Position numbers and translations under genes: made by a program. Below, one piece after another: positions 3,212 through 60,486 of a stretch of 64,000 bases of DNA (its first letter is position 1; every line of letters starts with the position of its first letter). The notes below the pieces were generated by a model. The model searched no databases and was not told the DNA's origin. It saw only the letters and a program-made list of their open reading frames with translations. The stretch comes from Alphaproteobacteria bacterium (lineage in GTDB: Bacteria > Pseudomonadota > Alphaproteobacteria > UBA828): positions 576,001 to 640,000 of the forward strand of contig CBDCRW010000004.1 in NCBI GenBank assembly GCA_965221125.1, given 5' to 3'.

Positions 3212-3538
3212 ATGCACAAGGTGGAGGACAGGCAGGTTCCGGCCCGCGCCGCGGCGTCCGCGCTGTCGTTCGACCCGCGCGCCCGAGGCGGCCGAATTTT
3301 TTCGGCCGGGGGCTTGACAAGGGGCGGTGACGCTCCCGGTATAATCAGCCGGTCAGCCGGTCAGCCGGTCAGCCGGTCAGCCGGTCAGCCGGTCAGCCGG
3401 TCAGCCGGTCAGCCGGTCAGCCGGTCAGCCGGTCAGCCGGTCAGCCGGTCAGCCGGTCAGCCCCACCTGGGTCTGCGCTCCGGCCATGATCGCAGCGGCA
3501 TGGCCGCGCTGCCGGAAGGGGCCACCATCCCGGCCTGA
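3212..3538 (+). CDS. Leader ORF of cassette 1, reading through the tandem repeat; out of frame with the 3486 gene
   Basis: Same GLT.......IIS-repeat-PHL...GHD..MAA...PA* architecture as the leaders at 38923 and 45723. The distance 3212 to 3486 is 274 nt (mod 3 = 1). This start is less well supported than in the other cassettes. Confidence 0.4.
   Translation: MHKVEDRQVPARAAASALSFDPRARGGRIFSAGGLTRGGDAPGIISRSAGQPVSRSAGQPVSRSAGQPVSRSAGQPVSRSAGQPHLGLRSGHDRSGMAALPEGATIPA
3314..3345 (+). promoter_or_regulatory. TTGACA-N20-TATAAT element abutting the tandem repeat
   Basis: TTGACA at 3314-3319 and TATAAT at 3340-3345. The same 20-bp spacing occurs at three other loci. Confidence 0.6.
3346..3462 (+). 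repeat. Simple sequence repeat (CAGCCGGT)x14 plus a partial unit
   Basis: Counted directly: 14 perfect units at 3346-3457, then CAGCC. Confidence 0.98.
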
Positions 3539-35222: not shown

Positions 35223-38213
35223 ATGCTCTCCATCGGGGCGCTCGCCTCGGCCGCCCAGGGCGCCAGCTACTATGAGCGCGACGGCTATTACGCGAAGGAC
35301 GATCCCGAGCACCGCGAGGCGAGCGCCTGGGCCGGCAGGGGGGCGGAAGAGCTCGGGCTGAAGGGTCCGGTCGATCCCGCTGCCTTCCGCGCCGTGCTCG
35401 AAGGCAAGGTGCCGGACGGCTCCGGCACCGAGCTCGGCCGGCGCGGCAAGGACGGCGAACGCCTCCACCGCCCCGGCCGCGACCTCACCTTCTCGGCGCC
35501 CAAGTCGGTCTCCATCGCAGCCCTGGTCGGCGGCGACGGGCGCATCATCGATGTCCACGACCGGGCCGTCGCGGCATCGCTCGCCTGGGTCGAGAGGAAC
35601 GCCGCCGAGACCCGCATGAAGGATCCGGATACGGGGAGAATGATACGCGCCGGCAACCAGAAGATCGTCGCCGCCACCTTCCGGCACGACACCTCGCGCA
35701 ACCTCGACCCCCAGCTCCACACCCATGCCGTGCTCGCCAACATGGTCCGGGGCGAGGACGGCAAGTGGCGCTCCATGGCCAACGAGAAGCTCTACGGCTC
35801 GAAGATGCTGCTGGGGGCGCTCTACCGGGCGGAGCTCGCCCGGGGTCTCGGGGGTCTCGGTTACGGCATCGAGAAGACCCATGCCGACGGGCGCTTCGAG
35901 ATCGCGGGGGTTCCCCGGGAGGCGATCGCGGCGTTCTCGAGCCGCCGCGCCGAGATCGAGGCGGCGATGGAAGAGCGCGGGCTCGGCGTCTCCGCCGACA
36001 ATCCGCGCATTGCCGAGCGCGCGGCATTGATGACGCGGGCGAAGAAGCGCGACATCGACCGGGGCGAGCTCCGGGGTGTGTGGCAGCGCCAGGCGGCCGA
36101 TCTCGGCTTCGACGCCAGGACTCCGGTCGTCGAGGCCATGGAACGGTCCGCTGCGCCGGAACCGGCCTCCGCGGCGGTCAGGACAGCCGGGATCGGGACA
36201 CAGACGGAACTGCCGTTGGACAGTGCGGCGCAGGCGCCGGGCCGCGATGCAACCGCCGAAGCCGCACCGCCCTCGCCGGCCGCGGGGGCGGTGGCCTGGG
36301 CGCTGGCGCATCTCTCCGAACGCGCGGCGGTGTTCCGGCGCACCGACCTGCTGACCGCCGCGCTGGTCCACGCGCCGGGCGCGGTCATGGTCGGTGACGT
36401 CGAACGGGAAGTCGCGGCGCTGGAGAAGGCGGGCGCGCTGCACGCCGTCGACCTGCCCGGCGCCGAGGACTCGCTGGCGACGGAGAAGACCGCCGGCGAG
36501 GAGCGCGAGGCGGTGGCCCTGATGCAGGCCGGCCGGGACCGCGGCCGAGCCCCGATGCGGGGCTGGCAGGTGCAGGCGCATCTCAACAAGGGCCCGCTCA
36601 CGGCCGGCCAGAAGGCGGCCGTCAAGCTCATTCTCGGCGCGAAGGACCGGACGGTGGGCGTCCAGGGCTATGCCGGCACGGGGAAGACCACCATGCTGAA
36701 CCGGGCGCGGACACTCGCGGAGAAGAAGGGCTGGCGCATGGCGGGCCTGGCGCCCTCGGCTTCGGCCGCGCAGACGCTCGCTTCCGAAGCCGGGATCGGG
36801 AGCGAGACCCTGCAGCGCTTCCTCGCCCGCAATGCCGGCGTCGCCGAAGGCAGGCTCACGAAGAAAGGCGCGAAGGAGATGCGCGCGGCCTTCGCGAAGA
36901 CCATCCTGGTGGTCGACGAGGGCTCGCTCGCCTCCACCGTCCAGGCGAGGGACCTGCTGCGCATTGCGAACGAACTGCGCATTCCCCGCCTGGTGCTGGT
37001 GGGCGACGCCAAGCAGCTCGACGCGGTGGATGCCGGCAAGCCCTTCGCCCAGCTCCAGGCCGCCGGCATGCGGACCGCGGTGATGGACGAGATCATGCGC
37101 CAGCGCGATCCGGCCCTGAAACAGGCCGTCGAGGCGAGTCTCGCGGGCGATATCGAAAAGGCGTTCGCGAAGCTCGGCAGCAACGTCGCCGAGGTGAAGC
37201 CCGACAATATCGCCGGAGCGGTGGCCGCCCGATGGCTTGCTCTCACCGACGAGGCGCGCGCCAACACCGGCGTGATGGCGCCGTCGCACACGCTCCGCCA
37301 GCAGATCAACGGCCATATCCGCGAGCGCCTCGCCCGCGAGGGCCGCATCCACGGGCCCGTCCTCGAGTCCGAACGGCTGGTCTCGAAAGGCTATACCAAT
37401 GCGGAGAAGGTGCTCGCCGGCAACTACGCCATGGGCGATGTGGTGGCGTTCCACCGCCCCTACAAGCGGATCGGCGTCGAGAAGGGCGACGAACGCCGCG
37501 TCACGGGTATCGATTACCGGGCGAACGAGGTGCTGCTCGATGACGGCAGTGGCGGAACGGTTGCCTGGAAGCCGGAGGAGATCGGCGGGCGCCGGGGCGG
37601 CAGCGAGGTCTACCGGGCCGAGGAGATCGAGCTGCGGGCCGGCGACCGCATCCGCTGGACCCGCAACGATGCCGGCCTCGGGCTGGTCAACAGCCGGACG
37701 GCGGAGGTGCTGAAGGTCGCGGACGGGCGGGTGACCTTCCGCCTGGAGGACGGCAAGACGCTGGAGTTGGGGAAGGGAGACCCGCAGCTGCGCCATCTCG
37801 ACCATGCCTGGGCGTCCACCGTGCATGCCTTCCAGGGCCGTACGGTGGACAATGTGATCGCCGCGATGGAGGCGAGGCATCCGCATCTCACCACCCAGAA
37901 GAGCTTCTATGTCGAGATCAGCCGCGCCCGCGAGCGGGCCGAGCTGGTCACTGACGACGCGGCCGACCTCCGCGCCCAGCTCGAAGCGGTCACCGGCGAG
38001 CGCGTCGCGGCGCTCGAAGCCATCGGCGAGATGAAGCGCGAGGCGCCCGACAGGGCTGCGGACGCAGCCTGGAGCGTGGAGCGGCCGGCGGATCGGGGCT
38101 CCGGTTCGGGCACGGCGAAGGACCGCGAGACCGGAAACACGCCGTCCAGGACGCCAGCGAAGGAACCGGAGGTGCCGGTCCGCGAGCGCGGCGGCATGGA
38201 CCTCGAATTGTGA
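35223..38213 (+). CDS. traI: MOBF relaxase-helicase (TrwC/TraI-like)
   Basis: YYERDGYY catalytic tyrosines, DLTFSAPKSVS, HDTSRNLDPQLHTH, and helicase motifs QGYAGTGKTT, VDEGS, VGDAKQL and QGRT. Confidence 0.95.
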   Translation: MLSIGALASAAQGASYYERDGYYAKDDPEHREASAWAGRGAEELGLKGPVDPAAFRAVLEGKVPDGSGTELGRRGKDGERLHRPGRDLTFSAPKSVSIAALVGGDGRIIDVHDRAVAASLAWVERNAAETRMKDPDTGRMIRAGNQKIVAATFRHDTSRNLDPQLHTHAVLANMVRGEDGKWRSMANEKLYGSKMLLGALYRAELARGLGGLGYGIEKTHADGRFEIAGVPREAIAAFSSRRAEIEAAMEERGLGVSADNPRIAERAALMTRAKKRDIDRGELRGVWQRQAADLGFDARTPVVEAMERSAAPEPASAAVRTAGIGTQTELPLDSAAQAPGRDATAEAAPPSPAAGAVAWALAHLSERAAVFRRTDLLTAALVHAPGAVMVGDVEREVAALEKAGALHAVDLPGAEDSLATEKTAGEEREAVALMQAGRDRGRAPMRGWQVQAHLNKGPLTAGQKAAVKLILGAKDRTVGVQGYAGTGKTTMLNRARTLAEKKGWRMAGLAPSASAAQTLASEAGIGSETLQRFLARNAGVAEGRLTKKGAKEMRAAFAKTILVVDEGSLASTVQARDLLRIANELRIPRLVLVGDAKQLDAVDAGKPFAQLQAAGMRTAVMDEIMRQRDPALKQAVEASLAGDIEKAFAKLGSNVAEVKPDNIAGAVAARWLALTDEARANTGVMAPSHTLRQQINGHIRERLAREGRIHGPVLESERLVSKGYTNAEKVLAGNYAMGDVVAFHRPYKRIGVEKGDERRVTGIDYRANEVLLDDGSGGTVAWKPEEIGGRRGGSEVYRAEEIELRAGDRIRWTRNDAGLGLVNSRTAEVLKVADGRVTFRLEDGKTLELGKGDPQLRHLDHAWASTVHAFQGRTVDNVIAAMEARHPHLTTQKSFYVEISRARERAELVTDDAADLRAQLEAVTGERVAALEAIGEMKREAPDRAADAAWSVERPADRGSGSGTAKDRETGNTPSRTPAKEPEVPVRERGGMDLEL

Positions 38214-38297: not shown

Positions 38298-38702
38298 ATG
38301 AGCGAAGACGACCGCAACGAGGCCTCCGGCGGCGAGAACGCGGCCGACAAGGCGGGCGATGTCCGCAAGACACGGGGCATCCGCTTCTCGGAATCGGAGT
38401 GGGAAGAGGTCAAACGCGCCGCCCTGGCCCATGACAAGCCGGCCGCCGAGTTCGTCCGCGAGCGCATCCTCGCGCTCGCGCGGAACCCCGAGGAGGCGGA
38501 TCGGGGGCCGGAGAGCGCCGAGCCGGCCCCGGTTGCGGCCTCGATGGCGCCGCTGATCGAGCGGATGTTCCGCTACACCTGGTTCCTGGCGACCGAAAGG
38601 CGCGACGCAATGGCCCGCGAAGGGCGCGGGGACGAGCTCGACAAGCTGGTCGCCGAGGCCCGGGCGTTCCAGGACTCGCTGCGCCGGGGCGCGGCGGACT
38701 GA
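38298..38702 (+). CDS. Small ribbon-helix-helix-like DNA-binding protein (copy 1)
   Basis: KTRGIRFSESEWEEVKRAA...AAEFVRERIL resembles an RHH/MobC-like fold. GAGGAG SD; three further copies occur downstream. Confidence 0.7.
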   Translation: MSEDDRNEASGGENAADKAGDVRKTRGIRFSESEWEEVKRAALAHDKPAAEFVRERILALARNPEEADRGPESAEPAPVAASMAPLIERMFRYTWFLATERRDAMAREGRGDELDKLVAEARAFQDSLRRGAAD

Positions 38703-38817
38703 GCCGGACAGGCGCCGGCCACGATCCGCGCGGTGAGCGCGCGCACGCGCTCGGCGCCGGGGGTCACCATGCGATGCCACGAATGGACTGCGGCGCGCAA
38801 ATGCGCGCAAGCGTCGT

Positions 38818-38846
38818 TTGCTTTCGTGTTCCGTGTTTGGTATCAG
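38818..38846 (+). promoter_or_regulatory. Candidate promoter for the cassette 2 leader (TTGCTT-N17-TATCAG, extended TG)
   Basis: The same geometry occurs at 45615-45643 and 54115-54143, about 80 nt upstream of each leader ATG. Confidence 0.45.
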
Positions 38847-38922
38847 TCGCTTGGAATGGGTCGTGCGCTCTCCTTCGGAGAGTCCGCATCGGGTGTTTTT
38901 TGCAGTCCGGAGGGGGGCGACC

Positions 38923-39246
38923 ATGGGTTTTGTGCGAGAGGCGTGGGCGGCGGTTGCGGCTGCCGCGGGCGAGGTCCGGGATCGGGGCTTGACAAGTGTC
39001 CTTGAGGCTCCCGTTATAATCAGCCGGATCGCCGGATCGCCGGATCGCCGGATCGCCGGATCGCCGGATCGCCGGATCGCCGGATCGCCGGATCGCCGGA
39101 TCGCCGGATCGCCGGATCGCCGGATCGCCGGATCGCCGGATCGCCGGATCGCCGGATCGCCCCACCTGCGTGCGCGTTCCGGCCATGATCGGGGCCGCAT
39201 GGCGGCGGCTCCTCCGTCGGACACCCTCTCCATCCTCCCCGCCTGA
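38923..39246 (+). CDS. Leader ORF of cassette 2 (MGFVREAW...), out of frame with adhesin 2
   Basis: GGAGGGGGG SD; reads through the repeat. The distance 38923 to 39185 is 262 nt (mod 3 = 1). Confidence 0.65.
   Translation: MGFVREAWAAVAAAAGEVRDRGLTSVLEAPVIISRIAGSPDRRIAGSPDRRIAGSPDRRIAGSPDRRIAGSPDRRIAGSPHLRARSGHDRGRMAAAPPSDTLSILPA
38989..39020 (+). promoter_or_regulatory. TTGACA-N20-TATAAT element
   Basis: TTGACA at 38989-38994 and TATAAT at 39015-39020. Confidence 0.6.
39023..39161 (+). repeat. Simple sequence repeat (GCCGGATC)x17
   Basis: 17 perfect units at 39023-39158, plus GCC. Confidence 0.98.
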
Positions 39247-42200
39247 GTCTTCCGGTCTCGCCGCTGCGGGCGGTCTGCGCCGGGCCGCCGCCGCCGGCCT
39301 GCTCGGCCTGCCGCTGGCGTTCGGTCTCGCCGGCGCGGCGCAGGCCTACGAGGGCATCACGATCTCGGCGCCCCCGGACGCGCCAGAGGGACATTCGGGC
39401 CTGACGAACCAGACCTTCGAGGTGCGCCTTACCGGACCGGTCTCGGGCGACGTCAACTACAAGGTCTGCTTTTCCGGCACGGCCACGTACGCGGACGACT
39501 ACAATCCCACGCTCGGTGGGACCCAGCAGTCCTCCAATTGCGTCAACGGCCGCATCGGCAGGGGGCGGACGACTCCTGACAGCGCCATCGGCATCGCCGT
39601 GGTCGGCGACGAGATTTCGGAAAGCGGAAGATGGCGCGGCGAGTACGGCGAGACGGTGACCGCGCACCTGACCCTTGTCGGCGCGCAGCCGTGGGACCTT
39701 GACGGCCGCCGCGCCCACACGGTCACCCACACCATCCTGAACGACGACGTGGCCGTGAGTTTCCGGCAGGCCAACTACGAAGGCCGCGAAGGGAAGCGGC
39801 TCCGCATCCAGGTCGACCTGGTGGAAAGCACCCAAGGATACCCATGGAACGTCACGGTCCCGTTCACGTATACCCGGGGAACGGCGTCGTCCGGCGACTA
39901 CGACGCCTCGCGGACCTCGCTGACCTTCCGGCGCGGCGAGATCACGCAGGACCTGTACGTCGACCTGACCGACGACAGCAGCTTCGACAGTGGCGAGACG
40001 TTCACCATCGATTTGGACACGGCCAGCTTTCCGACCGGCATGTATGACAGCGGCATTGCGCGAGCACGGGTGACCATCAAGGACAACGACTACAGCATCA
40101 GCGCGAGTTCCAGCTCCCATGCAGTCCGGGAGGACGCGGGGGGCGTCAGCATCCCGGTGACCATCAGCCCCGCGCAGGAGCGCACGGTGGGCGTGCGCGT
40201 CAGTTTCAGCGACATTAACGCTTCCGGCGGCCAGGACTACATCGCGAAACACCACAGCTTTCCGGACGACATCCTGACCTTCCATCCCGGGGAGACCGCG
40301 AAGTGGATCTTCGTCCCGGTCGTCAACGACGGCGCCTTCGAGCAAAACGAGCTGTTCAAGGTGACGCTGACACAGACGGTCGGAGCGACGGATCCGGAAA
40401 CCGTGGATATCATCATCAAGGATCATCGGCCAGGCGACGGCGAATACACCAGCAAGCTGATCCTCGAACGGACCAGCCGGGACACCGTCTCGGAGGGGCA
40501 GAGCGCGACGTTCAGGCTCACGATGCATCCGGCTGTGCAGGAAGGCTCCACCGTCGCGGTGCTGCTGTCGCAGTCGGCCGACGACGGCGTGCGGGCGAAC
40601 TGGATCGCCGGTGCGCCGGAGACGCACGCGCACTACAAGACCGTCAGTTTCGCCCGAGGGGAAAGCGTGAAGACCCTGACGGTGCCGATCCGGAGCGACA
40701 GGCGCGACACCAACGGCACGCTCACCGTGGCGGCGATGGCGCCGGGCGACCACCCCGCCAGCACCGGCCCCTACACCGCGCGCGGGCAGAAAGTGGTCGC
40801 GAAGGTGCGCATCCTGGACACCACGGCGGACGGCAACCCCCACAGCAGCCCCCAGCAGACGGCCGCGGTCGAGGTCCCCTCCACGGCGGTGACCAACCTG
40901 CAGGTGACGGCGGTTGACGGGAACACGGCGAAGGCGACGTGGGACGCGGTTCCGCACGCCACCGGCTACGAGGTGGAGTGGGACGCGCTCGACGGCAACG
41001 GGCAGTCGATCGCCGCCGGCCTCCACGCCGGCGTGACCGCCACGACGCAGACGATCGAACACCAGGCGCCGGGGGCGGCGTCGCTCAGGGTGACGGTGGC
41101 GCCGGAACATGTCGACGGCAACGGCGACACGCAGGTGCTCGCCGGCCTCGCGGCCACGGCGGTACTCGACCTGTCGACGCCGCAGTCCGCGCAGGCGGAT
41201 TCTCTCCAGGCGGGCGCGGCGTCCTGCGATCTCGGGACGCTGCGCGCGGACATCGCGGGCTATATCGGCGAGCAGCCGGAGACGAGCGACCATGTGAAGC
41301 GCTGGAAGCGGGTGCTGGCGGCGTTCGACGGCAAGGCCGGGGGCATGACCGCCGCCGAGGCCGGGACGTATGCCGGCAAGGGCTGGACGCGCTGGGACCC
41401 GGTGGTGGTGGCGCTCGACTGCCTGGAGAAGGCCGCGACGCCGCAGGCGGAGACGCCGGCGGCGGTCCCCGAGCTCAGCCTGTCGGCCGGTCCCGCCGTG
41501 GACGAGGGCGGCAGTGCGGTCTTCACCGTCCATGCCGATCCGGCGCCGGCGGCGGAGCTCACGGTCGCCTTCACCGTCGCCCAGAGCGGCGAGTACCTGG
41601 ACGCGCCCGGCGCGGGCAGCCGGACGGTGACGCTTGCGGCGGGCGCCGCGAGCGCCACGCTCGCCATCGCCACGGCCGACGACGGGGCCGATGAGGCCGA
41701 CGGCTCGGTCGGCGTCACCCTCGACGCCGGCGCGGGCTACACCCTGGCGGCCGGCAAGGCGGCCGCGAAGGTCGCGGTGCGCGACAACGACACGCCGGTC
41801 GTGAGCGTGGCGGCGGGCACTGGCGTTACGGAGGGCGATCCGGCGACGTTCACGGTGACGGCGACGCCCGCGCCCGCCGCGCCGCTCACGGTGGCGCTGA
41901 CGGTGGGCCAGAGCGGGGACTTCGCGGCTGCCGGCGAGACCGGCGCCAGGGAGGTGACCGTTCCGACCGGGGGCAGTGCAGCCTTCGAGGTCGCGACGGC
42001 GGACGACAGCGCGGACGAGCCGGACGGATCGGTGGGCGCGGCCCTGCAGTCCGGAACGGGCTATGCGGTGGCGGATCCGCCGGCAGACGCGGCCACGGTC
42101 GCGGTCTCGGACGACGATGTCGCGGCGACGGGCGTGCCGACGCTCTCGGTGAACGACGTCGAGGTGAAGGAGGGTCCGTACCGGCGGGTCGAGTTCACGG

Positions 42201-44071
42201 TGACGCTCAGCAAGGCGTTGGAGAAGGGCGCCTGGTTCTACTACCGGGTGCGGGAGTCGAGCCCGGTGTCGGCGAAGCGGGGCGTGGACTTTTCGGCCTC
42301 TACCGGAAAGAAATTTGCGTCCATAAGGCCGGGCGCGACCGAGCACCGGATCATGGCGGCCCTGGTGATCGACGACAGCCACGACGAGGACCCGGAGACC
42401 TTCGAGATCGTACTCTCGGACGCGAACGGCGTGGCGATCGCGGACGGGGTGGGCGTGGCGACGATCGTCAACGACGACCCGATGCCGGCGGCGTGGCTCG
42501 CGCGGTTCGGTCGCACGGTGGCGGAGCAGGCGCTCGACGGGATTGCCGGGCGCATCGCGGCGCCGCGCGCGGCGGGCATGCAGGGCGCGATTGCCGGGCA
42601 GGCGCTGAGCTTCAATCCTGGATCGGGGTCCCCCGGATCGCAGACCGGCGCGGCGAACGACAACGCGGCCAGTGTCGGCTTCTCCGGCACCGGGCCGCTG
42701 GCGCTGTCCGGCCTCGACGCTCCCGCCGGGCGCTTCGGCCCTGCCGGCCTCGGGGCTGGCTTCGGCCATGGCGTCCACGGTTTCGGCCAGGGCTTCGCGC
42801 AATCCCGTACCATGACGGGGCTGGAGGCGCTGCTGGGCTCGAGCTTCACCGCGACGGGAGAGACCGACGCCACCGGCGGCAGCCTCGCCTTCTGGGGCCT
42901 CGCGGCGCAGTCGAGCTTCGACGGCCGCGAGGGGACGTTCTCGCTCGACGGCGAGACGACGACGGCCATGCTGGGCGCGGACTATGCGCGGGGCAGGTGG
43001 CTGGTCGGGCTCGCGCTGATGCAGAGTTCCGGCGAGGGTGGCTACGCCGACAGGGCTGCCAGCCCCCGCCCCGCTTTGCAGACCTGCCCGGAGGATGCGG
43101 ACGAGAGTCTGTGCAACGGCGCGGTGCGGGAGGGCGACGGCGACGTGGAGGCGTCTCTGACGGCCGCCGTCCCGTACGCGGCCATCCAGTCGTCCGAACG
43201 TCTCAGGCTCTGGGGCGCGGCGGGCTACGGCACCGGCGAGGTGACGCTGAAGCCCGCCATGGGCGGCTCGCTCAAGTCGGACCTCTCCTGGACGATGGCG
43301 GCGGCGGGCGCGCGGAGCGATCTTCTCCAGCCTCCGAAGGAAGGGAGCGGTCCCACGCTCGCGCTGACCGCGGACGCCTTGTGGGCGCGGACCTCGTCGG
43401 AGAAGACGCGAGAGCTGGCGGCGTCGGACTCCGACGTGACCCGGCTGCGGTTGGGTCTGGAAGGCAGCTATCGCATCGCCACCGAGGGCGGCGGCCGGAT
43501 CGTGCCCAGGGTGGAGATCGGCGCGCGCCATGACGGCGGCGACGCGGAGACCGGCTTCGGCGTCGAGCTCGGCGGCGGCATCGCCTGGACCGATCCGGCG
43601 CTCGGGCTCTCGCTCGACCTCTCGGGCCGGACGCTGATCGCGCACGGCAACGACGATCTGGAAGACCGGGGCTTCGCGGCCTCGCTCGCCTTCGATCCGA
43701 ACCCGGGCACCGAGCGCGGCCTGTCGCTGACGCTCCGCCAGCGGATCGGCGGCCGGGCCGAGGGCGGGCTCGACGCGCTGTTCGCGACCGACCCGCTGGC
43801 CGACCGCACCGGTATCGGCGAGGTGGAGAGCCGATGGCAGGCGGAAGCCGCGTACGGCCTCCCGGCCCTCGCGGGGCGCTTCACCGGCAGCCCGCATGTG
43901 GGGCTCGGGCTCGCCACGGGCGCGCGCGACTACACGCTCGGCTGGCGGCTCTCGCCGGCGGCCAACGCCAACGCGCCCGATCTCTCCTTCGGCGTGAGGG
44001 CGACGCGCCGGGAGAGCGATACGGCGGCGCCGGAACACATCGCCGGGTTCGAGCTTCGCGCCCGCTGGTAA
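39185..44071 (+). CDS. Calx-beta repeat autotransporter-like surface protein (adhesin 2, about 1628 aa)
   Basis: Signal peptide ending AAQA, Calx-beta repeats and an FN3-like block shared with adhesin 1. The conserved barrel ends in RARW. Confidence 0.85.
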   Translation: MIGAAWRRLLRRTPSPSSPPESSGLAAAGGLRRAAAAGLLGLPLAFGLAGAAQAYEGITISAPPDAPEGHSGLTNQTFEVRLTGPVSGDVNYKVCFSGTATYADDYNPTLGGTQQSSNCVNGRIGRGRTTPDSAIGIAVVGDEISESGRWRGEYGETVTAHLTLVGAQPWDLDGRRAHTVTHTILNDDVAVSFRQANYEGREGKRLRIQVDLVESTQGYPWNVTVPFTYTRGTASSGDYDASRTSLTFRRGEITQDLYVDLTDDSSFDSGETFTIDLDTASFPTGMYDSGIARARVTIKDNDYSISASSSSHAVREDAGGVSIPVTISPAQERTVGVRVSFSDINASGGQDYIAKHHSFPDDILTFHPGETAKWIFVPVVNDGAFEQNELFKVTLTQTVGATDPETVDIIIKDHRPGDGEYTSKLILERTSRDTVSEGQSATFRLTMHPAVQEGSTVAVLLSQSADDGVRANWIAGAPETHAHYKTVSFARGESVKTLTVPIRSDRRDTNGTLTVAAMAPGDHPASTGPYTARGQKVVAKVRILDTTADGNPHSSPQQTAAVEVPSTAVTNLQVTAVDGNTAKATWDAVPHATGYEVEWDALDGNGQSIAAGLHAGVTATTQTIEHQAPGAASLRVTVAPEHVDGNGDTQVLAGLAATAVLDLSTPQSAQADSLQAGAASCDLGTLRADIAGYIGEQPETSDHVKRWKRVLAAFDGKAGGMTAAEAGTYAGKGWTRWDPVVVALDCLEKAATPQAETPAAVPELSLSAGPAVDEGGSAVFTVHADPAPAAELTVAFTVAQSGEYLDAPGAGSRTVTLAAGAASATLAIATADDGADEADGSVGVTLDAGAGYTLAAGKAAAKVAVRDNDTPVVSVAAGTGVTEGDPATFTVTATPAPAAPLTVALTVGQSGDFAAAGETGAREVTVPTGGSAAFEVATADDSADEPDGSVGAALQSGTGYAVADPPADAATVAVSDDDVAATGVPTLSVNDVEVKEGPYRRVEFTVTLSKALEKGAWFYYRVRESSPVSAKRGVDFSASTGKKFASIRPGATEHRIMAALVIDDSHDEDPETFEIVLSDANGVAIADGVGVATIVNDDPMPAAWLARFGRTVAEQALDGIAGRIAAPRAAGMQGAIAGQALSFNPGSGSPGSQTGAANDNAASVGFSGTGPLALSGLDAPAGRFGPAGLGAGFGHGVHGFGQGFAQSRTMTGLEALLGSSFTATGETDATGGSLAFWGLAAQSSFDGREGTFSLDGETTTAMLGADYARGRWLVGLALMQSSGEGGYADRAASPRPALQTCPEDADESLCNGAVREGDGDVEASLTAAVPYAAIQSSERLRLWGAAGYGTGEVTLKPAMGGSLKSDLSWTMAAAGARSDLLQPPKEGSGPTLALTADALWARTSSEKTRELAASDSDVTRLRLGLEGSYRIATEGGGRIVPRVEIGARHDGGDAETGFGVELGGGIAWTDPALGLSLDLSGRTLIAHGNDDLEDRGFAASLAFDPNPGTERGLSLTLRQRIGGRAEGGLDALFATDPLADRTGIGEVESRWQAEAAYGLPALAGRFTGSPHVGLGLATGARDYTLGWRLSPAANANAPDLSFGVRATRRESDTAAPEHIAGFELRARW

Positions 44072-44086
44072 TCGCGACGCCCGGCG

Positions 44087-44790: not shown

Positions 44791-44958
44791 TGCGCGGGCC
44801 GCGCCGCCGCGCGCCGATTGCCGAAATGCCGGGCGTTCGTTTGCCGTCGGCACGGAAACCCGGGCTCGGCCGCCGCGATTCCGCCTCGCGCGCGCCGTAT
44901 CGGGGGCGCCATGCGGCGCGCGGAAGACGCCGATGAGAGGCTGCAGAGGGGCCGAAGG

Positions 44959-45363: not shown

Positions 45364-45389
45364 GCGAAGCCGGCGGTCGCAGGACCGGT

Positions 45390-45722: not shown

Positions 45723-45947
45723 ATGGGTTCAGTGCGGGGAGCGTGGACGGCGATTGCGGTTGCCCTGGACGGGGTTCGAAGTCGGAGGTGTTCGCGCGGG
45801 CACTTGACAAACCCGGACGGTGCAGCTGTTAAAATAAGCCGGGACGCCGGGACGCCGGGACGCCGGGACGCCGGGACGCCTCACCTGCGCTCGCCTGCTG
45901 GTCATGAGGGCGCTCGCATGGCTGTGCCGCACATCTTCTCCGCCTGA
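45723..45947 (+). CDS. Leader ORF of cassette 3 (MGSVRGAW...), out of frame with adhesin 3
   Basis: G-rich SD; homologous to the MGFVREAW leader. The distance 45723 to 45904 is 181 nt (mod 3 = 1). Confidence 0.6.
   Translation: MGSVRGAWTAIAVALDGVRSRRCSRGHLTNPDGAAVKISRDAGTPGRRDAGTPHLRSPAGHEGARMAVPHIFSA
45804..45835 (+). promoter_or_regulatory. TTGACA-N20-TAAAAT element
   Basis: TTGACA at 45804-45809 and TAAAAT at 45830-45835. Confidence 0.55.
45838..45880 (+). repeat. Simple sequence repeat (GCCGGGAC)x5
   Basis: 5 perfect units at 45838-45877, plus GCC. Confidence 0.95.
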
Positions 45948-53864: not shown

Positions 53865-54222
53865 CCCCTGACACATGACTCCTGACGTTATCTGCGCTTC
53901 GTCGCCGCCTGCGTGGCCGGCCGCTGTCGCCAATTTGGCCGGGACCTTTCCGTTCTCCGCCGCGCCGTCGCGATCCGCTGGCTGCGGGTGCGGGTGCGCC
54001 CGCGGCGCTGACAGGTCGTGCGGGACCGGCGGTCGCCGGGCGAATGAGCGGCGCCCGGGGCCGTCATGAGTTGCCAGGGACGGACAGCGGCGCGTGAGCG
54101 TGCGCAAACGGGATTTGCTTTCGCGATTTGGATTTGGTACTTGGCGCGTGGATCGGGTCACAGGCCCTCTTCGGAGGTTCTGTGCCCGGCATTTTTTTGT
54201 TGAAGTCCGGAGGGGGGCGACC

Positions 54223-57200
54223 ATGGGTTTTGTGCGAGAGGCGTGGGCGGCGGTTGCGGCTGCCGCGGGCGAGGTCCGGGATCGGGGCTTGACAAGTTGC
54301 CGTGAGGTTCCCGTTATAATCAGCCGGATCGCCGGATCGCCGGATCGCCGGATCGCCGGATCGCCGGATCGCCGGATCGCCGGATCGCCGGATCGCCGGA
54401 TCGCCGGATCGCCGGATCGCCGGATCGCCCCACCTGCGCGCCTGCCGGTCATGATCGGCTCCGCATGGCGGCGGCTCCTCCGGCCTTCATCCCCGCCTGA
54501 GACATCCGCTCCCGCCGGCCGCGGCCTTCGGCGCGGCCTGCTGCCCGCGCTGCTGTGCCTGCCGCTGCTCGCGGGCCTCGCCGCCCCGGCCGCCGCGCAG
54601 ACCACCCCCTCGATCGCTGTGGCCGTCGCGACCTCGCCGACCGAGGGCAACCCTGCTGAATTCGCGCTGAGTGCAACAAGTTCGGGGTCGTGGTCGTCGT
54701 CGCTGACAGTGACCGTGAACGTCGCCCAGACCGGCAATTATGTCGCCGCGAACCATCTGGGCAACAGGGACATCACGATTCCGGCGGGCCAGTTTTACGC
54801 ATCGACGACGTTCTCCATCCCGACGATCGGGGACAATACGGATCAGGCGGAGGGCTCGATCACCGTGACGGTGCAGTCCGGCACCGGCTACACGGTGACT
54901 GGCGGAACGGCCACCGCAAGTGTCGTGGACGACGATCCGGTCGAGGTCTCGCTGACCGGCGGCGGCCGGATCAGGGACGGCAACACGGGCGATTCCGTCA
55001 ACATCGAGATTTCGGTCCCGCGCCCCGTCGACGGCGAACTCATCAGTGTTCCGCTGGTCATGACTTCAGGCACCGGCGCGCAACTGCCCGGGTCGACGAG
55101 CCCGGATTTCAGCTATGCGGTGACGGGAGGAACGGTCACCGCTCAAGCCGGCACGGCCACGCCGGTCCTGCGGTTCGGCACCGGCAGCAGTCGCATGACG
55201 TTGACGCTGACTCCCACGGCGGGCGAGGACAGCGACAGCGCCGATGAAACGATCACCGTCGGCTTTGGGACGTTCACCCAGAGCGTCCAGGGCGTCGGTG
55301 GCGGCGCGAAGGCGCATCCCGCGAACAACAGCGCCACGGTCAGGATCTCCGAGCCCCGGACGATATCGTTCACGGGTGTCGCCACATCGGTGTCCGGGCC
55401 GCTTGATCCCGCCTCGACGGACGGGACCCACTCGGTGAGCGAGAGCGTCGGCGCCTTATGGGTGGAGCTCGCATTGAGCCAGGCCCCGGAGTACACGACC
55501 ACCGTTTATGTCCGGGAGAAGAAGTCCGGCACGACGGCCACGCACCGCCAGGACTACAAACGCAGCGGCACAGGGTTCGGCTGGATCGCGAATTTCGGCG
55601 GCGGCAGTCGCAAGGCGCGGTTCCGGGTCCCGATCGTCGCCGACGGGATCGCCGACGACAAGGAGACGCTGACGCTCGAGATCTACAACGTCAGCAGCAT
55701 CGAACCCAATTTCAGCCTGGGCCACACGATCGACGCGGCCGGAACCTACACGCTCACGATCCGGGACTACACGGCGACCAATGCCAGCGACTATGTCGAC
55801 GTGTGGCTGTCGAAGGACGAATACGAAGTGACCGAGGGCGAGGCGCTCGAGGCGACCGTCCACCTGCAGCATCCGCGGGATGCGGACACCACGATCAACC
55901 TGACCGAGACGCGCGGCACGGCCACGGACGGCACGGACTACACCGCCGGCCCGTACTCCGTCACGGTCCCGGCGGGCAGGACGAGCGCGACCTTCACGGT
56001 CCAGACCACGCAGGACGAGGAGCAGGAACTGGGTGATGAGACATTCCGGGTGCGGATCGACGATTCCAGCCTGCCGGCAGGGTTCGCGACGTCGGACGGG
56101 ACCGGCAGGCCGGAAGAGGCCGTGGTCGAGATCGTCGACGACGAATACACCTTCTGTTTCGGGGCAAACAGCTATTTGGCTCCGGAGGGCGAGGAAGGGG
56201 TCCTGCCGCTCACGTTCTCGCGGCCGTTGCCGCAGGCAGGCTCGTTCCGGTTCCGCTACTTGAACCTGAACGCCAGCGACAGCGACTACACGCGAGTGTT
56301 CGACTTCCCGGTCTTTTTCGATCTCCCCGCGGGGACGGAGGAGTACACGCTCAGGCTCCCAGTCGCCGCGGACCTGCTGTACGAGGACAACGAGCTTCTC
56401 AAGATCACGTCCATTACGCCGACCATTCCGAATGGAATACTCGAATGCTCAACCGACATCATCATCAAGGACCGGAGCCGCGAGGTGGATTTCCAGGCCG
56501 CGGCCTACACGGCCCATGAGGGCCGGGAGGCGGAGGTGGGGATCCGGGTGGTCGAACGGGGAACCGACGATCTCATGACGCTCCGCAAGCCGGTCACGCT
56601 GCACATCGCCGCCACGGGCACGGGCAGCGCCACGGCGGGCACGGACTACGCGGCGGGCCCGTGGACTCTCACCATCCCGGCGGGGGCCTCCAGGGGCGTC
56701 CTGCGGATTCCGGTCCATGCGGACGGGGCCAATGACGACGGGGAGACCATCGATCTGGAGATCAAGCGGGCGACCGGGGGCTCCGGCGTGGCTCCCGGGC
56801 GACAGCTTGGCGACCAGAACGGCAACGTGCTGTCCGCAAACCTCCACGTCCGGGTCAGGGATACCACTGATATGCCCAACGGCGCCGCGACGGTGACGAT
56901 CCAGGGCGCGTCGGGGGCGCCGTCGGGCACGCGGTTGGTATGGATCGAGGCCGGCCCGCAGGTGTCCGAGGGCAGTGACGCCACCTTCACGCTGAAGGCC
57001 GACCCGGCGCCGCTTGCGCCGCTGGATGTCAGCATCCATGTCGGGGATACCGGGACGTCCCAGACACGGCATCTGGCCGAGGAGCACCGGGGCCTGCGGA
57101 CGGCGACCGTCGACACCACGGGGAGCACCGTCTTCACCGTGCCGACGCAGACGAACGGATCGCAGCACACCAGCGCGATCCGGGTGGCGCTGATGGACCC

Positions 57201-60200
57201 GTCCCTGCTGTTCGCCAGCCAGGAGGCCGACTACATGCCGGGCAAGCCGAGCGTGGCCTATGTCGGGGTGGACGCGGCCGTGCCCAAGTTCAAGGCGCAG
57301 CGGGACGCGCTGTCGGCGGTCGCGGAGGCGCCGAGCGCGCCGGTCTCGAACCTCCGGGTGACGGCCGTCGACGCCACGAGCGCGCAGGCGACCTGGGACG
57401 CTGTTCCCCATGCCACGGCCTATCGGCTGGAATGGGAAGGGGGCAGCGAGGGCGACTACATCGGCGGGGGCTCGAACGGCATCACCGGCACCTCGGCGAC
57501 GATCCACCACAATGCCCCGGCGGCGATGACGCTGACGGTCCGGGTGGTCCCGTGGCATGTGGACGACTACGGCCAGGTGCAGATGCACGATGGGCTCGCG
57601 GCCACGGCGACGCTCGCCGTGGGGCCGGCCGATCCGCTGGCCGCCGCGCGGAACGCCTGCGTGCCGGCGAGCGTCCGCTCGGACGTGGAGGGCTATGCGG
57701 GCGAGACGCATTACGGCGCGGCGCATGTGAAACGCTGGAACAGGGCGCTTGCAGCCTTCGGCGTCGACACCGGCGAGACGGCGATGACCGGGGACGAGGC
57801 GCGGGACATGATGGACAAATACACGGCGAAACGCTGGCGGCCGATCGTCGAGGCCATCGAGTGCATCGAGGAGGCGGAGAAGGCCGCCCAGGCGGCGTCC
57901 CTCCCCGAGATCGCGATCTCGGGCGGCGGCGATGTGACGGAGGGGGCGTCGGCGTCCTTCACCGTCACGGCGACGCCTGCGCCGTCTTCGCCGCTCGCGG
58001 TGACGCTGACGGTCGGCCAGAGCGGCGACTTCGCCGCGTCGGGCCAGACCGGCACGAGGCAGGTCACCGTGCCCACGGGGGGCAGCGTGACCGTCCAGGT
58101 CGCGACGGTGGACGATGCGGTGCTGGAGGCCGACGGCTCGGTGAGCGCGACCGTCGCGGCCGGGACCGGCTACAACGTGGCGGCGGCGCCGGCCGATACG
58201 GCTTCGGTCGCGGTCGCCGACGACGACACGCCAGTGGTGAGCATCGCCGCCGGGAACGGGGTGACGGAGGGCAGCCCGGCGTCCTTCACCGTCACGGCCA
58301 GTCCCGCGCCGTCTTCGCCGCTCGCGGTGAAACTGACGGTCGGCCAGAGCGGGGACTATGCCGCCGCCGGCGAGACCGGCGCCAGGGAGGTGACCGTGCC
58401 GACCGGGGGCAGCGCGACCGTGCAGGTGGCGACGGCGGACGACAGCGCGGACGAGCCGGACGGTTCGGTGAGCGTGACCGTCGGGGCCGGAACCGGCTAT
58501 GCGGTGGCGGCCTCGCCGGGCGATACGGCCTCGGTGGCGGTGGCGGACGACGATGCCGCGCCCCCGGTGTCGGAACTCACCATCGGCGATGTGACGGCCA
58601 ATGAGAGCGACCGGCTGATGTGGTTCACGGTCACGCTGAGCCCGGCCTCGGACCGTGCGGTATCGGTCGATTACCGGACCCGGGAGTCGAACCCGGTCTC
58701 GGCGCGCAAGCACGATGACTTTCTGCAGATCGACTTCGGGGATGTCACGTTCAGTCCGGGCGAGACGAGCAAGCGGTTCTGGGTCTACATGTTCGACGAC
58801 GGTCACGACGAGGGATCGGAGACCTTCGAGGTCGCGCTGTCGCATCCGACGGGCGGCGCGAGGATCGCCGACGGGGTGGCGGTCGGCACCATCGTGAACT
58901 CGGACCCGATGCCGGCGGCGTGGCTGGCGCGCTTCGGGCGCACGGCGGCGGAGCAGGCGCTTGACGGCATTGCGGGCCGCATCGCGGCGCCGCGCGAGGC
59001 CGGCGCCCGGGGCACGATTGCCGGGCAGGCGCTGAGCTTCGATCCCGGATCGGGCTCCCCCGGATCGCAGTCCGGGGCGGCGAACGACAACGCGGCCATC
59101 GCCGGCGTCGAAGGCGCCGGGCCGCTGGCGCTGTCCGGCCTCGATACTCCTGCCGCGCGCTTCGGTGCGGGTGGCTTCGGCCATGACGCTCACGGCTTCG
59201 GCCAGGGCTTCGCGCAATCCCGCACCATGACGGGGCTGGAGGCGCTGCTGGGCTCCAGCTTCACCGCGACGGGGGAGACCGACGCCACCGGCGGCAGCCT
59301 CGCCTTCTGGGGCCGCGCGGCGCAGTCGAGCTTCGACGGCCGCGAGGGCACCTTCTCGCTCGACGGCGAGACGACCACGGCGATGCTGGGCGCGGACTAT
59401 GCGCGCGGCAAGTGGCTGGTCGGCCTCGCGCTGATGCAGAGTTCCGGCGAGGGCGGCTATGCCGATGCCGGTACGGGGTCCGTGCGCTGTCCCCAGGACC
59501 TGGATGCGGAGACGCGGGAGGTCCTCTGCGGCGGAGCCGTGCGGGAGGGCGACGGCGACGTTGAGGCGTCGCTGACGGCTGCCGTCCCCTATGCGGCCAT
59601 CCAGGCGTCCGAACGGCTCAGGCTCTGGGGCGTGGCCGGCTACGGCACGGGCGAGGTGACGCTGAAGCCCTCCGTGGGCGGCTCTCTCAGCTCCGACATC
59701 TCCTGGACCATGGCGGCAGCGGGCGCGCGGAGCGACCTGCTGGTCCCGCCGAAGGAAGGCTCCGGTCCCACGCTGGCGCTGACTGCGGACGCCTTGTGGG
59801 CGCGCACGTCCTCGGAGAAGACGCACGAGCTTGCGGCGTCGGACTCCGACGTGACGCGCTTGCGGGTCGGCCTGGAGGGCGGCTACGCCATCGCCACGGA
59901 GGGCGGCGGCCGGATCGTGCCCCGGGTCGAGATCGGCGCGCGCCATGACGGGGGCGACGCGGAGACCGGCTTCGGCGTGGAGCTCGGCGGCGGCATTGCC
60001 TGGACCGATCCGGCGATCGGGCTCTCGCTCGACCTGTCGGGCCGGACGCTGATCGCGCACGGCAACGACGATCTGGAGGACCAGGGCTTCGCGGCCTCGC
60101 TCGCCTTCGATCCGAACCCGGGCACGGAGCGCGGCCTGTCGCTGACGCTCAGCCAGGACTGGGGCGGCTCGGCCAAGGGCGGGCTGGACGCGCTGTTCGC

Positions 60201-60486
60201 GACCGACCCGCTGGCGGACCGTGCGGGTACGGCCGAAGCCACAAGCCGCTGGCAGGCGGAGGCGGCCTACGGCCTCCCGGCCTTCTCGGGACGGTTCACC
60301 GGCAGCCCGCATGTCGGGCTGGGGCTCGCCACGGGCGAACGCGACTACACGCTCGGCTGGCGGCTCTCGCCGGCGGCCAACGCCAACACGCCCGATCTCT
60401 CCTTCGGGGTGAAGGCCACGCGGCGCGAGAGCGAGGGGGTCGAGCCGGAGCACACGGTCGGATTGGAGCTTAGGGCGAACTGGTAA
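54223..60486 (+). CDS. Calx-beta repeat autotransporter-like surface protein (adhesin 4); leader in frame (internal ATG at 54451)
   Basis: GGAGGGGGG SD before the ATG at 54223. The distance 54223 to 54451 is 228 nt (in frame). Signal peptide ending AAPAAA; barrel ending RANW. Confidence 0.85.
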   Translation: MGFVREAWAAVAAAAGEVRDRGLTSCREVPVIISRIAGSPDRRIAGSPDRRIAGSPDRRIAGSPDRRIAPPARLPVMIGSAWRRLLRPSSPPETSAPAGRGLRRGLLPALLCLPLLAGLAAPAAAQTTPSIAVAVATSPTEGNPAEFALSATSSGSWSSSLTVTVNVAQTGNYVAANHLGNRDITIPAGQFYASTTFSIPTIGDNTDQAEGSITVTVQSGTGYTVTGGTATASVVDDDPVEVSLTGGGRIRDGNTGDSVNIEISVPRPVDGELISVPLVMTSGTGAQLPGSTSPDFSYAVTGGTVTAQAGTATPVLRFGTGSSRMTLTLTPTAGEDSDSADETITVGFGTFTQSVQGVGGGAKAHPANNSATVRISEPRTISFTGVATSVSGPLDPASTDGTHSVSESVGALWVELALSQAPEYTTTVYVREKKSGTTATHRQDYKRSGTGFGWIANFGGGSRKARFRVPIVADGIADDKETLTLEIYNVSSIEPNFSLGHTIDAAGTYTLTIRDYTATNASDYVDVWLSKDEYEVTEGEALEATVHLQHPRDADTTINLTETRGTATDGTDYTAGPYSVTVPAGRTSATFTVQTTQDEEQELGDETFRVRIDDSSLPAGFATSDGTGRPEEAVVEIVDDEYTFCFGANSYLAPEGEEGVLPLTFSRPLPQAGSFRFRYLNLNASDSDYTRVFDFPVFFDLPAGTEEYTLRLPVAADLLYEDNELLKITSITPTIPNGILECSTDIIIKDRSREVDFQAAAYTAHEGREAEVGIRVVERGTDDLMTLRKPVTLHIAATGTGSATAGTDYAAGPWTLTIPAGASRGVLRIPVHADGANDDGETIDLEIKRATGGSGVAPGRQLGDQNGNVLSANLHVRVRDTTDMPNGAATVTIQGASGAPSGTRLVWIEAGPQVSEGSDATFTLKADPAPLAPLDVSIHVGDTGTSQTRHLAEEHRGLRTATVDTTGSTVFTVPTQTNGSQHTSAIRVALMDPSLLFASQEADYMPGKPSVAYVGVDAAVPKFKAQRDALSAVAEAPSAPVSNLRVTAVDATSAQATWDAVPHATAYRLEWEGGSEGDYIGGGSNGITGTSATIHHNAPAAMTLTVRVVPWHVDDYGQVQMHDGLAATATLAVGPADPLAAARNACVPASVRSDVEGYAGETHYGAAHVKRWNRALAAFGVDTGETAMTGDEARDMMDKYTAKRWRPIVEAIECIEEAEKAAQAASLPEIAISGGGDVTEGASASFTVTATPAPSSPLAVTLTVGQSGDFAASGQTGTRQVTVPTGGSVTVQVATVDDAVLEADGSVSATVAAGTGYNVAAAPADTASVAVADDDTPVVSIAAGNGVTEGSPASFTVTASPAPSSPLAVKLTVGQSGDYAAAGETGAREVTVPTGGSATVQVATADDSADEPDGSVSVTVGAGTGYAVAASPGDTASVAVADDDAAPPVSELTIGDVTANESDRLMWFTVTLSPASDRAVSVDYRTRESNPVSARKHDDFLQIDFGDVTFSPGETSKRFWVYMFDDGHDEGSETFEVALSHPTGGARIADGVAVGTIVNSDPMPAAWLARFGRTAAEQALDGIAGRIAAPREAGARGTIAGQALSFDPGSGSPGSQSGAANDNAAIAGVEGAGPLALSGLDTPAARFGAGGFGHDAHGFGQGFAQSRTMTGLEALLGSSFTATGETDATGGSLAFWGRAAQSSFDGREGTFSLDGETTTAMLGADYARGKWLVGLALMQSSGEGGYADAGTGSVRCPQDLDAETREVLCGGAVREGDGDVEASLTAAVPYAAIQASERLRLWGVAGYGTGEVTLKPSVGGSLSSDISWTMAAAGARSDLLVPPKEGSGPTLALTADALWARTSSEKTHELAASDSDVTRLRVGLEGGYAIATEGGGRIVPRVEIGARHDGGDAETGFGVELGGGIAWTDPAIGLSLDLSGRTLIAHGNDDLEDQGFAASLAFDPNPGTERGLSLTLSQDWGGSAKGGLDALFATDPLADRAGTAEATSRWQAEAAYGLPAFSGRFTGSPHVGLGLATGERDYTLGWRLSPAANANTPDLSFGVKATRRESEGVEPEHTVGLELRANW
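54289..54320 (+). promoter_or_regulatory. TTGACA-N20-TATAAT element
   Basis: TTGACA at 54289-54294 and TATAAT at 54315-54320. Confidence 0.6.
54323..54429 (+). repeat. Simple sequence repeat (GCCGGATC)x13
   Basis: 13 perfect units at 54323-54426, plus GCC. Confidence 0.98.

Follow-up and report, generated by a model that had tools for sequence, protein, structure and literature searches.

By what means is the copy number of a short tandem repeat converted into expression of the gene behind it, and how many outcomes can there be? This question is raised by a stretch of 64,000 nucleotides (nt) from an uncultured alphaproteobacterium of the GTDB lineage UBA828 (GenBank assembly GCA_965221125.1, contig CBDCRW010000004.1, positions 576,001 to 640,000 of the forward strand), which is referred to as the window throughout and whose own numbering is used. 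The window harbors four cassettes, in each of which a perfect array of 8-nt units is located directly upstream of a giant gene for a Calx-beta surface protein. Phase variation is known almost entirely from pathogens and is mostly depicted as a switch with two states, ON and OFF; in the present case, uncultured sponge or marine symbionts carry families of giant Calx-beta genes, each copy behind its own hypermutable array. We propose, with a probability of roughly one half, that the arrays are simple sequence repeat switches which act via a translated leader, so that the number of repeats would determine whether leader translation is fused to the adhesin, is followed by a restart at the adhesin start codon, or ends early.

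Repeat arrays and cassette architecture

The host genome has a size of 4.58 Mb on 7 contigs and a GC content of 69%. Tandem Repeats Finder detected four perfect period-8 arrays (100% matches) in the window, and the whole genome contains exactly five 8-nt arrays of at least four copies (5.4 to 29.75 copies, 100% identity). The fifth array (29.75 copies) is located outside the window on the same contig, upstream of a paralogue of cassette 1, and all five arrays precede giant Calx-beta open reading frames (ORFs) or a paralogue of these. The units have the form GCCGG+NNN, with ATC, TCA, GAC, GTC, GTT, or AGA as NNN across related genomes. As perfect tandem repeats of a short unit whose length is not a multiple of three, the arrays resemble those of slippage-driven contingency loci. 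Sequencing runs containing the window sequence are labeled as sponge or marine metagenomes. No Rfam family matched anywhere in the window.

Upstream of each array, the window cassettes contain a single open frame with an ATG (3212, 38923, 45723, and 54223), which is preceded at a distance of 5 to 8 nt by a GGAGG-like or G-run motif. The remaining frames both end 0 to 18 nt before the array (0 to 54 nt over the cassettes examined). In cassette 2, no start other than the ATG at 38923 has a Shine–Dalgarno sequence in the 200 nt before the array; from this ATG, the frame is open into the array, and the leader sits within an ORF of 142 amino acids (38818..39246). Downstream of the arrays, the consensus consists of (C/T)CACCTG, a short spacer, and GG(C/T)CATGA, in which the ATG of the adhesin ORF overlaps a TGA of the +1 frame; a GCCTGA further downstream closes the −1 (+2) frame. 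Direct reading of the 15 nt before the four ATGs revealed no GGAG-like motif. The positions of internal ATG, overlapping TGA, and GCCTGA given in a preliminary description of this DNA were confirmed for all four cassettes by a frame walk, as were its statements that the −1 frame is closed 41 to 59 nt after the ATG (50, 59, 41, and 47 nt in cassettes 1 to 4) and that the post-repeat spacer of cassette 4 is 2 nt shorter than the others (21 nt compared with 23 nt). The CTG/TTG of the CACCTG box was considered as an alternative start and rejected, because its frame differs between cassettes 2 and 4.

Three states can be distinguished by the frame in which the leader leaves the array: the leader is fused in frame to the adhesin (state a), stops at or beside the ATG (state b), or stops at GCCTGA (state c). 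The leaders of cassettes 1 to 3 and of the extra genome copy end at GCCTGA. The leader of cassette 4 is in frame with its adhesin ORF, which is why an ORF of 2130 codons beginning at 54094 (54094..60486) is listed at this position. The coordinates are compiled in Table 1.

Table 1. Positions of the cassette elements in the window
Feature	Position	Strand	Description
Cassette 1	3212..3538	+	leader ATG 3212; array 3345-3462, TCAGCCGG x14.75; state c
Cassette 1, stops		+	ATGA with ATG 3486 and TGA 3487; GCCTGA stop 3536-3538, 50 nt after ATG
Cassette 2, terminator-like hairpin and T-run	38882..38905	+	consensus scan; just 5' of the leader ribosome-binding site
Cassette 2, leader Shine–Dalgarno GGAGGGGGG and leader ATG (38923)	38909..38925	+	sequence read
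Cassette 2, leader ORF	38923..39246	+	runs through array, past ATG out of frame, ends at GCCTGA; state c
Cassette 2, promoter-like TTGACA-N20-TATAAT	38989..39020	+	inside leader ORF; leader frame GGC TTG ACA ... ATA ATC
Cassette 2, array	39023..39161	+	GCCGGATC, 17.4 copies, 100% matches
Cassette 2, post-array spacer	39162..39184	+	23 nt, CCACCTGCG...CCGGCC, no Shine–Dalgarno-like motif
Cassette 2, ATGA	39185..39188	+	predicted adhesin start codon; overlaps +1-frame TGA (39186)
Cassette 2, GCCTGA	39241..39246	+	−1 (+2) frame stop, TGA 39244, 59 nt after ATG
Cassette 2, Calx-beta surface-protein gene	39185..44071	+	1628 amino acids; signal-peptide core about 30 residues after ATG
Cassette 3	45723..45947	+	leader ATG 45717/45723; array 45838-45880, GCCGGGAC x5.4; state c
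Cassette 3, stops		+	ATG 45904, TGA 45905; GCCTGA stop 45945-45947, 41 nt after ATG
Cassette 4	54223..54500	+	leader ATG 54223; array 54323-54429, GCCGGATC x13.4; 21-nt spacer
Cassette 4, stops		+	ATG 54451, TGA 54452; GCCTGA 54495-54500, TGA 54498, 47 nt after ATG

Related cassettes in other genomes

Relatives of the cassettes were identified by an array-only pattern scan of a genome collection, followed by searches inside the matched genomes. The same architecture was found in two of 20 other genomes of the genus (loci L007, L008, and L010). Further carriers comprise two alphaproteobacterial metagenome-assembled genomes (MAGs), another MAG of the Pseudomonadales, in which at least seven cassettes are present, and a gammaproteobacterial one whose isolate name is of the sponge style. 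A cyanobacterial MAG carries an altered form. The scan yielded at least 115 loci, most of them unrelated 8-nt arrays (Actinobacteria and others); among the matches listed, only L028, L044, L067, L080, and L093 led to the cassette family. A scan of JGI metagenomes with TAWAAT and three units gave 11 loci, none of them a true homologue, and an order-level search around genome G053 and a family-level search around genome G050 gave no new cassette loci. Perfect GCCGG-core 8-nt arrays of 5 to 45 copies were common in unrelated high-GC bacteria (loci L023-L137, among them Streptomyces, Micromonospora, Nocardia, Achromobacter, and Burkholderia records), with differing flanks.

For the analysis of conservation, a set of 23 post-array sequences from alphaproteobacterial, gammaproteobacterial, and cyanobacterial MAGs was used, all of which had been found without reference to ATGA or GCCTGA. 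Extra cassettes recovered with a pattern anchored on ATGA and GCCTGA entered only the counts of frame states. The cassettes are homologous and represent about nine sequence types.

Several cassettes bear additional rearrangements. L193 (G054:C3) and L197 (G062:C1) have compound arrays, in which GCCGGGTC and GCCGGATC units are directly adjacent in one tract. A 21-nt duplication lies between array and ATGA in L008 and L010 (G041), a 7-nt duplication of GGCTTGA inside the leader of L202 (G049), and a duplicated GGTGGGTGCATGA beside the array of L183 (G050).

Array length and frame states

Cassettes with near-identical flanks carry very different array lengths (238/118/94/94/118 nt, 341/141/221/125 nt, and 219/211/123 nt in three such groups), which indicates that the copy number changes on short time scales. 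All three frame outcomes that had been proposed for the window were encountered in assembled genomes. Among 30 complete cassettes, 18 are in state c, six in state a, and six in state b, the latter including leaders that end at an extra stop 5 to 8 nt before the ATG. Compared with equal thirds, state c is in excess (P(≥18)=0.0025). It persists in the subset found with the array-only pattern (12/18, P=0.0039) and after the removal of two arrays that are possibly identical by descent (16/28, P=0.008). If the frame imposed by the upstream start were of no consequence, the three states should be equally frequent; the frame therefore seems to matter. One of the five cassettes of this genome and one of seven in the Pseudomonadales MAG (G049) are not in state c; both are fusions. 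The excess of leaders ending at GCCTGA fits state c as the default OFF state. In the six cassettes now in frame b, the leader stop overlaps or abuts a downstream start that has no Shine–Dalgarno sequence. States a and b are equally frequent, so that b is not singled out.

Conservation of the two stops

The preliminary description had made its proposal dependent on ATGA and GCCTGA being conserved in homologous cassettes elsewhere, and this held in other genomes. ATGA is present in 20 of the 23 post-array sequences. The cyanobacterial L149 has TGATG, the other classical overlap, in its place; L152 has ATGG with a +1-frame TGA 7 nt further on, and the long frame of L164 lacks an ATG. In 19 of 23 sequences, the +2 (−1) frame is closed 41 to 68 nt after the ATG (exceptions L180, L149, L152, and L164). 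In an alignment of 15 homologues with 55% mean column identity, (C/G)ATGA and GCCTG stand out as invariant blocks: ATGA and GCCTG are present in 15/15 sequences, the final A of GCCTGA in 14/15.

As background, 1656 long ORFs of the same genome with a GC content at the third codon position of at least 0.85 were evaluated. In these, an A follows the ATG in 38% of the cases. A +2-frame stop occurs within 75 nt in 20% when counted from the start and in 8% when counted from random positions within genes; the median distance to such a stop is 548 to 734 nt (548 nt from the start). The codon after the initial methionine varies among the cassettes (Ile, Thr, Arg, Ser) and its first base is always A. 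The conserved TGA takes its T from the last position of a CCT codon; CCT accounts for 4.1% of the proline codons of the genome. The variable second residue behind a fixed A and the use of the rare CCT argue for selection on the stops rather than on the peptide. Where the spacer contains additional stops, namely TAG at −5 (L007) and TGA at −8 (L191 and L198), all of them are in the same frame as the stop of ATGA.

The leader

An ATG or GTG with a Shine–Dalgarno sequence whose ORF reaches the array was present in 14 of 14 cassettes tested. Seven other starts preceded by a Shine–Dalgarno sequence lie in other frames, and all of these frames stop before the array. The leader peptides of divergent cassettes share the pattern M-x-G-[FYIV]-x-x-[RK]-h-[WR]-A-A-h ... 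G-L-T; their DNA cannot be aligned, and the codons used for the conserved Gly and Arg/Lys differ. A metatranscriptome contig covers 45621-45785, that is, the terminator-like region and leader start of cassette 3, at a depth similar to that of a contig inside the gene. This is a weak hint that the leader start of cassette 3 is transcribed, as the contig is strand-blind and stems from a related strain.

The preliminary description had overlooked an element located between leader start and array. CTTGACAA-N19-TA(T/A)AAT is conserved in the window leaders; its two hexamers are 20 nt apart, it ends 2 nt before the array, and A/T tracts precede the −35-like box. The consensus scan misses the window element because of the 20-nt spacer. 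A promoter-like motif was called in two of the four regions scanned, and the −35/−10 spacing ranges from 17 to 27 nt across the sequence types; a pattern with a 17-nt promoter spacer gave no match, the window included. A block TTTGC(T/C)TTCG..GTTTGGTA(T/C) is found 70 to 100 nt upstream of the leader ATG in cassettes 2 to 4 (38816-38880, 45613-45650, and 54108-54150). In these cassettes, TTGCYT-N17-TAYYWG is a possible weak promoter of the leader; it was read by eye and was not called by the consensus scan.

RNA downstream of the array

The 80 nt following GCCTGA have a median C/G ratio of 1.81 (n=33 cassettes), compared with a median of 1.04 in coding windows of the genome, whose 95th percentile is 1.55. 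In the protein, this C-rich stretch corresponds to a Ser/Pro/Arg/Ala-rich linker that follows the initial methionine and precedes the signal peptide. RNAalifold returned only 4 pairs (−2.6 kcal/mol) for 15 post-array sequences and thus no conserved structure. No hairpin with a T-run, as required for an intrinsic terminator of the pil1 type (see below), follows any of the four window arrays, and pairing of the start codon was inconsistent among six post-array regions folded. A hairpin between the start ATG and the CAT of GCATGG fits cassettes 0 and 1 and L093; it was rejected, since it is lost in cassettes 2 to 4 and yields no RNAalifold consensus. A conserved frame-2 ATG within GCATGG was also dropped, because GCATGG is absent from three sequence types.

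The adhesin N-termini

In each window cassette, the internal ATG opens an ORF of 900 to 2000 codons, and the products are Calx-beta proteins with a hydrophobic signal-peptide core 20 to 50 residues after the ATG. Apart from this ATG(A), most cassettes have no ATG, GTG, or TTG ahead of the core. The assumption that initiation there would give a protein with a normal signal peptide has to be amended, as a low-complexity stretch of 20 to 80 residues separates the ATG from the hydrophobic core. Two cassette types possess a second internal ATG immediately ahead of the signal peptide (+78 in C3; +189 in L008 and L010); in L008 and L010, sequence reading revealed a Shine–Dalgarno-like GGAG before it. 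Neither the leader nor the fusion N-terminus nor any of three ATG(A) N-termini matched the extended signal peptide region (ESPR) of large secreted adhesins or another Pfam family (E≤10).

Proposed read-out of the arrays

According to the model, ribosomes would initiate at the leader start with its own Shine–Dalgarno sequence and run into the perfect 8-nt array. Gain or loss of a unit by replication slippage would shift the frame by 2 nt, so that ribosomes coming from the leader would reach the adhesin start, which lacks a Shine–Dalgarno sequence, in a frame dictated by the copy number. In frame a, they would read through and produce a leader–repeat–adhesin precursor whose internal signal peptide might still be cleaved (ON). 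In frame b, they would stop at the TGA of ATGA, or at the extra TAG or TGA 5 to 8 nt before it, and restart at the ATG by termination–reinitiation coupling (ON, probably at a different level). In frame c, ribosomes would pass the ATG out of frame and stop at GCCTGA 41 to 68 nt later, leaving the gene untranslated (OFF). Judging from its base composition, the bare C-rich, G-poor RNA behind this stop should allow Rho to end transcription, so that the gene of 5 to 8 kb would not be transcribed in the OFF frame. Rho requires C-rich RNA free of ribosomes, and since upstream ORFs are a precedent for its control, the early stop is proposed both to limit junk translation and to expose the RNA.

The invariant ATG without a Shine–Dalgarno sequence, the stop overlapping it, and the additional stops of the same frame within 8 nt favor a productive frame b. 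The ATG(A) product already has 20 to 80 residues before the core, so that a long N-terminal extension seems to be tolerated and the fusion of state a is probably productive as well. More tentatively, the whole may be viewed as a portable three-level cassette consisting of a conserved leader, an 8-nt array, AUGA re-initiation, a translated rut-like linker, and a giant adhesin, which is spread over phyla of sponge-associated bacteria. If this doubtful extension were correct, a single slippage event would take a gene from one of three levels (full read-through, coupled re-initiation, or silence enforced by Rho) to another, and the cassette would be a tri-stable switch joining slippage, translational coupling, and transcription polarity, a combination not known from any phase-variable locus.

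Several observations weigh against a translated leader read out by frame. The main caveat is the promoter-like element between leader start and array: if transcription began from this element alone, the mRNA would not contain the leader start. Its TTGACA and TATAAT boxes are composed of rare codons (TTG 3.2%, ACA 2.3%, ATA 1.7%), which argues for selection at the DNA level. In the gammaproteobacterial L153 and L093, the consensus scan calls sigma-70-like motifs (TTGACG-17-CATCAT and TTGACA-17-GATCAT, respectively) that end 6 to 12 nt before the arrays. In the four regions scanned, it called no consensus promoter upstream of the leader, and a terminator-like hairpin with a T-run lies 7 to 30 nt upstream of the leader Shine–Dalgarno sequence in cassettes 2 to 4 and L153. 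The third-position GC content of the leaders is atypical for coding DNA (0.665 over 313 codons compared with at least 0.85 in the background genes). Window cassettes 2 to 4 show a weak composition signal behind GCCTGA (C/G 1.10 to 1.32; 1.10 in cassette 2). The early stop is lost in one homologue, L180, where GCCTGA is changed to GCCTGG and the next stop follows at +260. Furthermore, the array lengths were taken from assemblies, several of them MAGs, in which long arrays may be wrong, and the conservation counts and P values overstate independence because the cassettes share ancestry. Whether the array lies within a translated ORF is thus argued for by the Shine–Dalgarno start, the frame skew, and the leader motif, and against by the downstream promoter-like element and the low third-position GC content. 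Either two promoters or read-through transcripts reconcile leader and promoter-like element, or the array is part of a 5'-untranslated region (5'-UTR).

The last of these explanations, which we consider unlikely, takes TTGACA...TATAAT as the promoter, with transcription starting at the first unit and the leader ORF remaining untranslated. As in the HMW1A system of Haemophilus influenzae, where a heptamer repeat upstream of hmw1A is described as being transcribed within the 5'-UTR (PMC12721329), array length rather than frame would tune stability, processing, or translation of the mRNA, and ATGA and GCCTGA would be kept for a favorable A at +4, for a conserved N-terminal peptide, or for catching stray out-of-frame initiation. 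The perfect boxes built from rare codons in a genome of 69% GC are in line with this, as are the 17-nt-spaced calls directly upstream of two gammaproteobacterial arrays, the A/T tracts, the hairpin before the leader start, and the leader base composition. However, it does not predict the skew towards state c (18/30, P=0.0025), a Shine–Dalgarno start whose frame always reaches the array, the similarity of the leader peptides, or the rare CCT that creates the TGA. The spacing of the boxes, 20 nt in the window and 17 to 27 nt among the types, and the lack of a conserved RNA structure behind the array also speak against it.

Two further explanations accept leader translation and differ in the states that would be productive. 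An arrangement as in the opa genes, in which the upstream start is the true adhesin start, only frame a is ON, and the two stops merely limit waste, appears somewhat less probable still. It would account for the strong Shine–Dalgarno sequence at the leader and its absence at the internal ATG, for the two genomes with a single fusion cassette and all others in state c (1/5 here, 1/7 in G049), and for the need of stops in a GC-rich genome, in which off-frame ORFs otherwise run for hundreds of nucleotides. Yet the ATG itself and not only the TGA is invariant in 15/15 sequences, a methionine has no obvious purpose within the linker, this ATG is the sole possible start before the signal peptide in most cassettes, and none of the extra frame-1 stops is more than 8 nt away from it; C3 and L008/L010 even have an additional ATG before the signal peptide, with GGAG in L008/L010. 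The strong version put forward in the preliminary description, in which only state b would be exportable and the fusion would be a cytoplasmic dead end, is improbable. ATGA without a Shine–Dalgarno sequence is the textbook arrangement for coupling, and fusion would place the signal-peptide core more than 100 residues from the N-terminus. Against this stand the fusions, which are as frequent as state b and should be counterselected if they gave a costly, non-exportable product of 2000 residues, and the 20 to 80 residues ahead of the core in the ATG(A) product itself. We therefore favor the three-frame read-out via a translated leader, with states a and b both probably ON.

Neighboring genes and further features

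A check of read data over 39130-54360 returned contigs only, and the contig pieces break at the arrays. Contig joints and loose ends at 39171, with other sequence after CCCCACCTGCG, may be chimeric paths or stem from other organisms. The gene of cassette 1 is represented by two overlapping long ORFs in different frames (3486-6194, 902 codons; 5827-13671, 2614 codons), which may be due to a frameshift, a second slippage site, or an assembly error. The adhesin gene of cassette 4 contains a tandem duplication of 327 nt (57934-58553, 1.9 copies, 83% identity).

Each giant adhesin gene is followed by a conserved ORF of about 223 amino acids (13765-14439, 44087-44758, 51610-52284, and 60502-61173; the third lies downstream of the cassette 3 adhesin gene), for which Pfam and NCBIfam gave no match. 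The adhesin cassettes adjoin genes of mobile elements. Directly upstream of cassette 2, a MobF/TrwC-type conjugative relaxase is encoded (35223-38213; NCBIfam MobF, E=7.6e-88), followed by an ORF of 134 amino acids (38298-38702) without an NCBIfam match, whose DNA is 82–88% identical to the 3' part of the 51610-52284 ORF and to ORF 44818-45363.

Outside the window, the genome contains three perfect 10-nt arrays with the units GGCACAAAGT and AAGCCGAGAT (contig C4, 376250-376336; contig C6, 524221-524265, reverse complement of the same unit; and contig C6, 145246-145294). The first two are flanked by degenerate copies and adjoin the start-like sequence ...GGCTCATGATGG. These 10-nt arrays may constitute another type of repeat switch, or they may be iterons.

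Significance and comparison with known systems

If the proposed read-out is correct, it offers a testable mechanism for surface variation one adhesin at a time, and termination–reinitiation, probably together with Rho polarity, would join the known read-outs of repeat slippage. The regulatory cassette would move between Alphaproteobacteria, Gammaproteobacteria and, probably, Cyanobacteria. For annotation it would be a warning, as the start codons and apparent "frameshifts" of adhesin genes would depend on the state of the array. A search of one literature collection gave no relevant work joining sponges and contingency loci and nothing joining termination–reinitiation and phase variation; matches for octanucleotide repeats and phase variation were unrelated, and no sponge-symbiont paper appeared among the best 15 matches of another search.

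In the opa genes of Neisseria, CTCTT repeats are located in the region coding for the signal peptide, encode part of it, and give two equivalent OFF frames. The cassettes resemble opa in being a multigene family of surface proteins with a repeat tract in each copy, most copies being out of frame and switching occurring by slippage. They differ in that the array lies upstream of a second conserved start and each off frame has a conserved stop of its own. AUGA or UGAUG overlaps of stop and start are the basis of translational coupling, for example in the trp operon, where the overlap is fixed. The same features, an upstream stop overlapping a downstream start without a Shine–Dalgarno sequence, recur here, with TGATG in L149, whereas a hypermutable array would decide whether the overlap is used.

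The pil1 operon for a surface structure in Streptococcus gallolyticus is controlled by GCAGA repeats in a leader-peptide ORF, and an intrinsic stem-loop terminator is melted by ribosomes on longer leaders (PMC3894217). At the level of sequence, the likeness is considerable: a repeat whose unit is not a triplet lies in a short leader ORF, and its copy number moves the leader stop, which decides on expression. In contrast, the arrays described here are followed neither by a conserved hairpin nor by an intrinsic terminator, and the attenuation of pil1 is therefore not copied. Instead, one stop overlaps the gene start, one frame is fused, and the third ends before C-rich, rut-like RNA. The heptamers of hmw1A/hmw2A in H. 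influenzae are likewise situated between a promoter-like element and the start of a giant adhesin; they are reported to belong to the 5'-UTR and to lower expression gradually as their number rises, via a hairpin processed by RNase III (PMC12721329). Here, the upstream start, the two conserved stops, and the frame skew speak for a read-out modulo 3. It is established that upstream ORFs, tnaC and others, control termination by Rho (PMC12360218), and the cassettes share with these systems a short upstream ORF and C-rich RNA behind its stop, so that ribosome cover would gate the loading of Rho. In the known cases, the signal is a metabolite or ribosome stalling, whereas the signal proposed here is the frame set by the repeats. 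Repeat-driven phase variation, including that by a repeat inside a leader-peptide ORF, is thus known; the modulo-3 design with a conserved outcome for each frame, the read-out via a stop–start overlap, and the spread across phyla of sponge-associated bacteria appear to be new.

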